From contig NC_043002.1 of the NCBI RefSeq assembly GCF_006345805.1, positions 112,716,001 to 112,780,000 on the forward strand: DNA of 64,000 nucleotides, written 5' to 3'. Of the stretch, positions 56,813 to 58,597 are shown one piece after another. Under the pieces are notes generated by a model, which was given only the letters and a program-made list of their open reading frames with translations, ran no database searches and was not told where the DNA came from. A program made the position numbers and the translations under genes. Numbering within the stretch: the first letter of the stretch is position 1; each line of letters opens with the position of its first letter. This DNA is from Octopus sinensis (taxonomy: Eukaryota).

Positions 56813-57219
56813 ATATATATATATATATATATATATATATATATATATCTATATATATATATATATATATATATATATATATAATATATATATATATATA
56901 TATATATATATATATATATATTATATATATACATATATATATATACATATATATATATATATACATATATATATATATACATATATATATATATATATAT
57001 ATATATATATATATATATACATATATATATATATTATATAATTAGGGCTTAGTAAAATAAATTACTTTGCCACATACTGAACTTAGTAGAAATAGCAGCC
57101 AGAAAAATTTTCTTAGCATTTCTACTACTTAAGAAAATTTCTCTCAGATAATGTTTACTCTAGACAGCTCACGAAGGTTTGGGGGTAAATACAGAAAAAT
57201 ATCACAAGTACATAGATCG

Positions 57220-57282
57220 TTTGAGTACGTCAACGTTTCAAGATTAGCCAAATAAAATCAGCATTTCTTTCGTCAGCTCAAA
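57220..57282 (-). ncRNA. Type I hammerhead ribozyme (left arm)
   Basis: Reverse complement of 57680-57742. Confidence 0.82.
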
Positions 57283-57679
57283 ATTTCTTAATTTGGATTT
57301 GGAAACACTAAAAAGAAGGAACTTTACCTATCAGCGAACTACTCGCTTCAGATGAACCACTCCAACTAACAGTGTCAACAAATTCAAAATGCGCAGGCGT
57401 AAAATTCTGCACTCCCCATTCCACCCACGTAAATTAATTAATTTTACCCTCAATTGTTGATATTATAATTAATTTCTCTCGGTCATACTGCCTCGGTTCT
57501 CGCGGTTAAAATATAATGTTTGCTAGATAGACCACGTGGGTGGAATGGGGAGTGCAGAATTTTACGCCTGCGCATTTTGAATTTGTTGACACTGTTAGTT
57601 GGAGTGGTTCATCTGAAGCGAGTAGTTCGCTGATAGGTAAAGTTCCTTCTTTTAGTGTTTCCAAATCCAAATTAAGAAT

Positions 57680-57742
57680 TTTGAGCTGACGAAAGAAATG
57701 CTGATTTTATTTGGCTAATCTTGAAACGTTGACGTACTCAAA
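57680..57742 (+). ncRNA. Type I hammerhead ribozyme (right arm)
   Basis: Stem I TTTGAG/CTCAAA, CTGACGA (57686-57692), stem II AAGA...TCTT, GAAA (57723-57726), stem III ACG-ttga-CGT, GUA site (57734-57736). Confidence 0.85.
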
Positions 57743-58597
57743 CGATCTATGTACTTGTGATATTTTTCTGTATTTACCCCCAAACCTTCGTGAGCTGTCT
57801 AGAGTAAACATTATCTGAGATAAATTTTCTTTAAGTAGTAGAAATGCTAAGAAAATTTTTTCTGGCTGCTATTTCTACTAAGTTCAGTATGTGGCAAAGT
57901 AATTTATTTTACTAAGCCCTAATTATATAATGTAATATTTGAATTCGCCTTAAATGGTCCTTTTACATACTGAACACTTGGTGAAATTGATTAATTAATT
58001 ATTTTACCCTCAATTGTTGATTCATATATATATATATATGTATATAGTATATACATATATATATATATATATATATACATATATATATATAATGTATATA
58101 TATATATATATACATATATATGTATATATAATATGTATATATATATGTATATATATATATATACATATATATGTATATATATATGTAATATATGATACAT
58201 AATATACATATAAAATATATATGTATATATATATATAATATATATATATATATAATATATATATTATATATATATATGTATATATATATTACATATATAT
58301 ACATATACATATATAATATATGTATATATATATATATAAATATTATAGATATATATACATATATATATATATATATATACATATATATATATATACCATA
58401 TATAATATATGTATATATATTACACACACACACACTCACAGACACACACACACACCACACACACATATACACTTATATATATATATATATATATATATAT
58501 ATATAATATATATATATATATATAATATCTATCGGAACAGCTCACCCACATAAGTTAGATTCACTCAGTTTTGACGGGGATTTTTTCAAATTTTTTT

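Follow-up and report, generated by a model that had tools for sequence, protein, structure and literature searches.

The closest described systems are the PLEs, for which we draw here on sections of the papers cited. The standard features of a PLE insertion are an inverted, 5'-truncated copy, a partial tandem, a tail of 30–40 bp and a bias towards microsatellite or (TA)n targets (PMC8557442; PMC3846280); the tail is attributed to two RT start sites (PMC8557442). In Penelope-13_HM, for example, there is an inverted 5' copy, the hammerhead is listed for both strands and (TA)n is the preferred target (PMC8557442 supplement), and in Schistosoma opposite-strand hammerhead pairs lie 100–700 bp apart (PMC4209133). 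Purified PLE protein has been found to cut AT-rich DNA, to extend both strands and to initiate internally, and it mainly uses uncleaved RNA, ribozyme cleavage not being required (PMC11167929). Non-LTR retrozymes are described as pLTR-related non-coding units (bioRxiv 10.64898/2026.07.22.740005), and 31 recently active Penelope-like families are reported from Octopus vulgaris (PMC13282606). How PLEs form their tandem and inverted structures is named as an open question (PMC8557442). Judged by titles and the beginnings of abstracts, the open-access literature yielded no account of twin priming as a PLE mechanism, and the literature on octopus hammerheads, judged from listings, yielded nothing on the family described below.

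The window analyzed here is a stretch of 64,000 nt from Octopus sinensis, and it contains a foldback insert of 989 nt, hereafter copy A, flanked on either side by a (TA)n array (Table 1). This is a real, recent and largely ordinary PLE-type insertion with a layout already known from PLEs. The two arms of the foldback, 57033–57430 and 57534–57931, are 398 nt each, are identical in 395 of 400 alignment columns and are separated by a spacer of 103 nt. They differ by one substitution (57141/57821) and four 1-nt indels, all four of which fall in homopolymer runs of 2–6 bases. The spacer begins with a repeat of the far end of the insert: 57432–57461 equals 57993–58021 in 29 of 30 columns, a score reached by none of 5000 spacer shuffles, and the two 3'-end copies are 560 nt apart from start to start. 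When the unit 57462–58021 (560 nt) is called M and numbered M1–M560, the insert reads as the reverse complement of M73–470, followed by M532–560 and M1–560. The initial annotation had described near-perfect inverted arms around a 103-bp spacer, a far-end copy of about 30 nt within that spacer, the order of inverted fragment, monomer end and monomer of about 560 nt, and a hammerhead on each strand. All of these were recovered, and the two hammerheads are one sequence duplicated by the inverted copy, a side effect already known for such copies.

Table 1. Positions of the insert, its parts and its relatives within the 64,000-nt window
Feature	Position	Strand	Basis or remark
(TA)n array, left flank, presumed target	56813..57040	.	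TRF period 2, 115.5 copies
Inverted copy of M73–M470	57033..57430	-	alignment to M
Mirror hammerhead	57220..57282	-	descriptor scan; predicted cleavage at 57226
30-nt copy of the 3' end of M (M532–M560)	57432..57461	+	alignment
Non-coding unit M, full monomer or 5'-truncated copy	57462..58021	+	
M51–M98, predicted pairing with about M304–M353	57512..57559	+	local inverted alignment
Type I hammerhead	57680..57742	+	descriptor scan and covariation; predicted cleavage after 57736
Conserved structured 3' domain common to copy B	57828..58021	+	73% over 198 columns, E 2e-20
(TA)n array, degenerate, right flank	58024..58532	.	TRF
Copy B, diverged relative between (TA)n arrays	13582..14040	-	
Copy B hammerhead	13950-13868	-	descriptor scan
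Element C, between (TA)n arrays	16775-17150	+	
Element C type I hammerhead, extended stem II	16930-17024	+	

The outer end of the inverted arm lies in M463–468, where M has its one perfect TA run of six nucleotides, and this sole TATATA blends into the flank, leaving the breakpoint ambiguous by ~10 nt. The symmetry of the arms ends at 57033/57931, and the right side runs on for 90 nt with homology to copy B. In neither orientation are the outer flanks related to each other (scores 22 and 23), and the junction between the pieces of the foldback shows at most 1 nt of homology. The 30-nt end segment is present twice and is placed in the middle of the insert, not as an outer extension; its middle copy opens inside the loop of the terminal stem-loop of M and is followed by 13 nt of A and T only. 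A target-site duplication is unreadable inside (TA)n, and such arrays make up 5.9% of the window. Position 57462 may be the true start of the unit or a truncation point, both of which fit the window.

The hammerhead of M was found with a descriptor built on the generally known hammerhead core pattern. It consists of a stem I of 6 bp, the core CUGACGA, a stem II of 4 bp with an extension, GAAA, a short helix III and a GUA site. Among 2000 dinucleotide shuffles of the 560-nt unit, none passed the descriptor with strict stem thresholds and four passed with looser ones. The Rfam hammerhead models gave no match at the gathering score, and none of the 22 hits obtained with E up to 10 belonged to them. 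Rfam matches to miRNA precursors at 57372–57591 scored far below gathering and arise from the foldback hairpin, and a miRNA precursor at this place was rejected. The best evidence that the ribozyme fold may be selected is its covariation between copies A and B, a comparison of two sequences in which 13 of 13 stem pairs are kept, seven with changes on both sides and one with a change on one side. The predicted cleavage site lies 285 nt from the 3' end in A versus about 290 nt in B. The hammerhead of the insert is presumably an active ribozyme.

The isolated motif is not more stable than shuffles (z −0.3 to −0.7), and its hammerhead fold lies 0.4 kcal/mol above the minimum. Helix III can pair fully with itself (10 of 10 pairs, two of them G-U) at a dimer energy of −10.8 kcal/mol, as in the dimer-type metazoan motif (PMC4209133). 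Position 10.1–11.1 is A-U in copy A, G10.1–C11.1 being usual in most hammerheads (PMC4209133). The pair probability of stem I is 0.35–0.47 in the context of M and about 0 in B and C, and it is 0 in the plus-strand transcript of the whole foldback. Whichever direction is transcribed, the antisense arm precedes the sense ribozyme. Read-through RNA should, on these predictions, trap the ribozyme, such that the foldback would suppress it rather than use it.

Copy B shares its last ~190 nt with copy A at 73%. The 3' ends of the two coincide within a few nucleotides and the 5' sides differ freely; outside the hammerhead, the 5' parts are not alignable. Copy B has no long inverted repeat. At its 5' end, though, it carries a 19-nt inverted piece (about 14021–14039) that copies 13917–13935 with 17 of 19 positions identical, which was equalled in 0/5000 shuffles, or 5/5000 when its TA start was left out. 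The outer end of this piece is an internal TATA, one of five interior tracts, and the inverted ends of A and B thus both fall on internal TA tracts. A role of the piece as a ribozyme switch was considered and rejected, since the stem I probability is about 0 whether the piece is present or not. Both alignable copies (2/2, a small sample) lie in (TA)n and combine a constant 3' end with a 5' end that varies.

Element C has a hammerhead with a perfect 12-nt palindromic helix III and one mismatch in stem II, and 73 nt downstream of its cleavage site it carries a near copy of a 14-nt motif of A and B. It could not be aligned to A (159/300 shuffles) and aligned weakly to B (8/300), and it therefore belongs to a different family. 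All three elements with an extended-stem-II hammerhead (A, B and C) lie between (TA)n arrays. The 14-nt motif has six matches in the window against 0.44 expected. Further near matches at 48988–49001, 50039–50052, 42656–42709 and 9478–9513, where the downstream sequence is weakly related, possibly represent another repeat family with the same motif.

Other hammerhead relics are present in the window. At 32037–32149 (−) there is a decayed relative of the 3' part of C (77% over 113 nt), in which a relaxed scan found no intact hammerhead. A minimal hammerhead at 25598–25643 (−), with an extra base after the core, no helix III and a predicted cleavage at 25603, is of the kind described for Penelope/Poseidon elements. 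(TA)n flanks were absent at the tested boundaries of 32037–32149 and of the minimal hammerhead at 25638. Over the whole window the relaxed scan gave five hammerhead cores (A, its mirror, B, C and the minimal one), four of them distinct, versus 0.05 per shuffled window; with four distinct examples, hammerhead relics are therefore common in this genome. The window also has tandem arrays at 53534–53890 (71-nt unit, 5 copies, 98% matches) and 36745–37026 (103-nt unit, 2.7 copies), and a hammerhead scan of both returned no motif.

Unit M folds better than its shuffles on both strands (z −5.05 sense, −4.01 antisense), the value for copy B being only −1.54. Its folding energy is −142.9 as a circle versus −147.6 in linear form. 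The 3' domain common to A and B (z −4.75 in A, −3.15 in B) has 38 consensus pairs, four of which changed on both sides in this two-sequence comparison, and it is a candidate RT-recognition region. The inverted alignment of M51–98 with about M304–353 was equalled in 11/2000 shuffles, with pair probabilities near 1; a duplex test of the whole spacer, M1–72, against the rest of the unit was not significant (395/500). As moderate evidence, the predicted pairing of M51–98 suggests that the distal spacer is element sequence.

The longest non-repeat frame in M is 66 aa. None of the 11 element frames matched RT or GIY-YIG in Pfam: 10 were without any family and one had a weak DUF4665 match (E 0.16), nine of the frames being scanned with E up to 1. 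The same holds in the window as a whole, where no RT core or GIY-YIG was found in the 140 longest of 200 ORF pieces (Pfam), and the only matches were Tc1-type, zf-RVT and one of low complexity. A PxGxN-like string in the frame 57517–57630, which resembles the end of PLE endonucleases, lies downstream of a stop, has no support and was rejected as an endonuclease end. Unit M gave no match to plasmids and phages, the family motif had no matches in bacterial and archaeal genomes, and a tRNA search found none; a bacterial promoter scan is uninformative for this host. Elsewhere in the window there are broken remnants of Tc1-type transposases at 25893–26616 (−) and 39437–40490 (−) (Pfam), a retroelement-like ORF remnant with a zf-RVT Pfam match at 19654–20289 (−), and further ORF remnants at 18463–18876 (−), 27459–27824 (−) and 8443–8931 (−) that, by resemblance, are presumably retroelement-like as well.

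A 3' end that is fixed, an inverted 5' end that varies and insertion into (TA)n together indicate target-primed reverse transcription, and, as a new detail, the start of the arm at a TATATA that merges with the flank suggests that both target strands primed it. The anatomy, the covarying hammerhead, the common 3' end, the (TA)n flanks and the TA microhomology at the inverted ends are observed, whereas the PLE enzyme, the priming on both strands, the recency and the ribozyme activity are inferred. We favor, as a reasonably probable account, a recent PLE-type target-primed insertion of a non-coding hammerhead element into (TA)n in which both target strands served as primers. An RT/GIY-YIG protein encoded elsewhere would have copied the element, a non-autonomous unit or else an autonomous element truncated to its 3' end, into (TA)n by target-primed reverse transcription. 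One nicked strand, primed at the fixed 3' end, would have copied the 560-nt unit and 30 nt of another 3' end. The other nicked strand would have annealed by TA microhomology to the internal UAUAUA and copied from M470 to M73 in the opposite direction, and the two cDNAs would then have been joined head to head to give the foldback. The template would have been uncleaved at the hammerhead, or religated, and the foldback would be a by-product with no function of its own. The Penelope-type partial-tandem layout proposed in the initial annotation is thus borne out by the family member B, the (TA)n flanks, the covarying hammerhead and the published PLE structure.

The inverted part duplicates the direct part, and therefore more than one unit of template is needed. 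Along a tandem RNA the pieces of copy A would be M73–470 (inverted), a gap of 61 nt, M532–560 and M1–560. They are collinear with one tandem RNA, and two RNAs with a template jump give the same sequence. A recent insertion copied from a circular or tandem RNA had been proposed at the outset; the recency stands, and a circular or tandem template is one possibility among others, since only 30 nt of a second unit are present and a template jump between two RNAs is equivalent. It is possible but doubtful that the insert arose by a single twin-priming event, the template being an uncleaved RNA, head-to-tail or circular, made of a non-autonomous PLE unit of 560 nt. On one tandem RNA the inverted piece of copy B would require a gap of about 360 nt, and two templates explain this copy better. 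The left junction of copy A could also come from a later microhomology deletion, from the flank to the internal TATATA.

Other origins have to be weighed against this double-primed insertion. M might be a 560-nt hammerhead-processed circle of the retrozyme type, copied for 1.05 turns and with the inverted arm taken from the same or a second circle; the direct copy exceeding the unit length and the highly self-paired unit speak for this. Circular templates have been proposed for PLE tandems, and the stem I of 6 bp, the stem II of 4 bp and the palindromic helix III are like those of canonical metazoan type I hammerheads (PMC4209133). However, the window has no head-to-tail array with two hammerheads, circular folding brings no gain, A and B end at the same site and are not permuted, their 5' parts are unalignable outside the hammerhead, and 560 nt exceeds the 170–400 nt of invertebrate retrozymes (PMC7229834). 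A circle is thus improbable as the source, and about as much can be said for an inverted arm made, or outer 90 nt trimmed, by self-priming on cDNA or an antisense template, or by foldback or deletion at the DNA level after insertion. For head-to-head PLE repeats, self-priming has been put forward as the mechanism, and PLE copies often show microhomology-mediated deletions (PMC3846280); had such a deletion run from the (TA)n flank as far as the internal TATATA, the left junction would be identical. The self-priming proposal, though, relies on palindromes at the inversion junction, whereas the arms here are 103 nt apart, the sequence between them includes the direct 3'-end copy, and the junction homology is at most 1 nt. 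One substitution in 398 nt also leaves little time for a second event.

Four of the five arm differences, and the difference between the end copies, are 1-nt indels in short runs, as with consensus errors of long reads, and could indicate an assembly or library artefact derived from a chimeric foldback read. PLE structures are known to trouble assemblies (PMC8557442). We consider an artefact unlikely all the same: the symmetry stops at 57033/57931, the 90 nt beyond it on the right have a homologue in copy B, the two outer flanks do not resemble each other, the spacer lacks symmetry, and a small inversion of an analogous kind is seen in B. Nor is there much to recommend repeated insertion, in which two or three members of a young family would have landed independently, one within another, at a single TA-rich spot. 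The A/T-only stretch after the middle end copy could be a remnant of the target, and PLE protein can nick its own pLTR (PMC11167929), but the pieces abut with no (TA)n between them and are nearly identical, and the composite layout is the usual product of a single PLE event (PMC8557442). The reading that we reject is a MITE or foldback DNA transposon bounded by long terminal inverted repeats. Inverted arms that are long and nearly perfect, a TA target and fragments of Tc1-type transposases in the window would suit it; the repeats are not terminal, however, with an overhang of 90 nt at the right end, and the covarying ribozyme points to an RNA stage. Fixed terminal inverted-repeat ends of the MITE kind, which the initial annotation had set against its own interpretation, were not seen, and copy B, which has no long inverted repeat, largely refutes them.

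The value of the locus is that of a clean young integration product of PLE type, and TA-guided second-strand priming as a source of PLE inversions is the lead worth following. If TA-guided twin priming were general, it would explain the head-to-head inversions of PLEs, and every read-through transcript, in which the antisense arm comes first, would have its ribozyme switched off. Near-perfect dsRNA has been linked to high hyper-editing in O. bimaculoides (PMC5625713), and in an octopus host such foldbacks would add to this class of dsRNA, if transcribed. The earlier expectation of ~400 bp of dsRNA holds as a predicted fold (−717 kcal/mol) conditional on transcription; as a feature of this locus it is not special in the window. 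Further inverted pairs of 282–414 bp and 90–96% identity, at 2236–2632/4901–5306, 28268–28666/31525–31935, 32807–33193/34770–35153 and 60063–60344/62284–62564, could also form long dsRNA if transcribed.

Compared with the known systems, the element works like a PLE terminal repeat and is filed as a non-coding PLE-type hammerhead element. It shares with autonomous PLEs a type I hammerhead on the sense strand of the terminal repeat and a partial tandem with an inverted, 5'-truncated copy in head-to-head orientation, and it has no ORF with the telomerase-related RT and GIY-YIG endonuclease of autonomous EN+ PLEs. With retrozymes it shares a canonical type I hammerhead and a non-coding, highly self-paired unit, and a head-to-tail tandem of at least two hammerhead-bearing units is absent (1.05 direct units here and none in the window). 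Inverted repeats at both termini of all copies, as in a MITE, were not found. With neither an ORF nor a tandem, the element is therefore filed under neither the autonomous PLEs nor the active retrozymes.

Within this framework, the resemblance to L1 twin priming (PMC2912911) lies in the second target end, which anneals internally via microhomology and gives an inverted 5' segment. The two cDNAs of L1 derive from different stretches of a single RNA, whereas here the inverted part duplicates the direct part, which calls for a tandem, circular or second template, and unlike L1 the insert has no poly(A) tail and no readable TSD. The likeness to non-LTR retrozymes extends to the low GC, the canonical-size type I hammerhead and the relation to PLEs (PMC7229834). 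The lack of a tandem of two hammerhead units sets the insert apart from them. Its 560 nt lie above the 170–400 nt invertebrate range in one source (PMC7229834) and within the 51–972 bp range of retrozyme consensus sequences in another (bioRxiv 10.64898/2026.07.22.740005). Inverted copies, as found here, are not part of the retrozyme descriptions in the sections of these two sources used here.

Among PLEs, Penelope/Poseidon elements such as Adineta Pen2a, Anolis PAc and Schistosoma Cercyon have an inverted pLTR beside a direct one, as here, and also share the AT-rich targets and the opposite-strand hammerhead pairs 100–700 bp apart. They carry a 30–40 bp tail, and the 30-nt end copy of the insert has the size of the published PLE tail (30–40 bp, PMC8557442). 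Unlike the insert, these elements have hammerheads of the minimal kind, in which helix III is reduced or missing, and their ORF begins within the pLTR. In Pen2a the inverted and the direct pLTR overlap by 15 bp, whereas the arms here are 103 nt apart, and the inverted copy of the insert is short by 90 nt versus 30–40 in Penelope/Poseidon. The 3' ends of Naiad_Obim and Naiad_Ovul show no obvious likeness by eye, and the 14-nt motif is absent, in either orientation, from the PMC8557442 supplement; no sequence link to a named PLE emerged from these comparisons.

In the Hydra clade, Hydra-1_Obim has its hammerhead about 100 nt from the 3' end, versus about 285 nt in the insert, and the two hammerhead sequences differ when compared by eye. 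Unlike most of the Hydra motifs listed, that of the insert has no extra core nucleotides; it has an extended stem II, and no ORF accompanies it. Like Hydra-clade PLEs, the element prefers (TA)n, and its type I hammerhead, with a short helix III, is close to the 3' end; like Penelope-13_HM it has an inverted, 5'-truncated copy that places a hammerhead on each strand.
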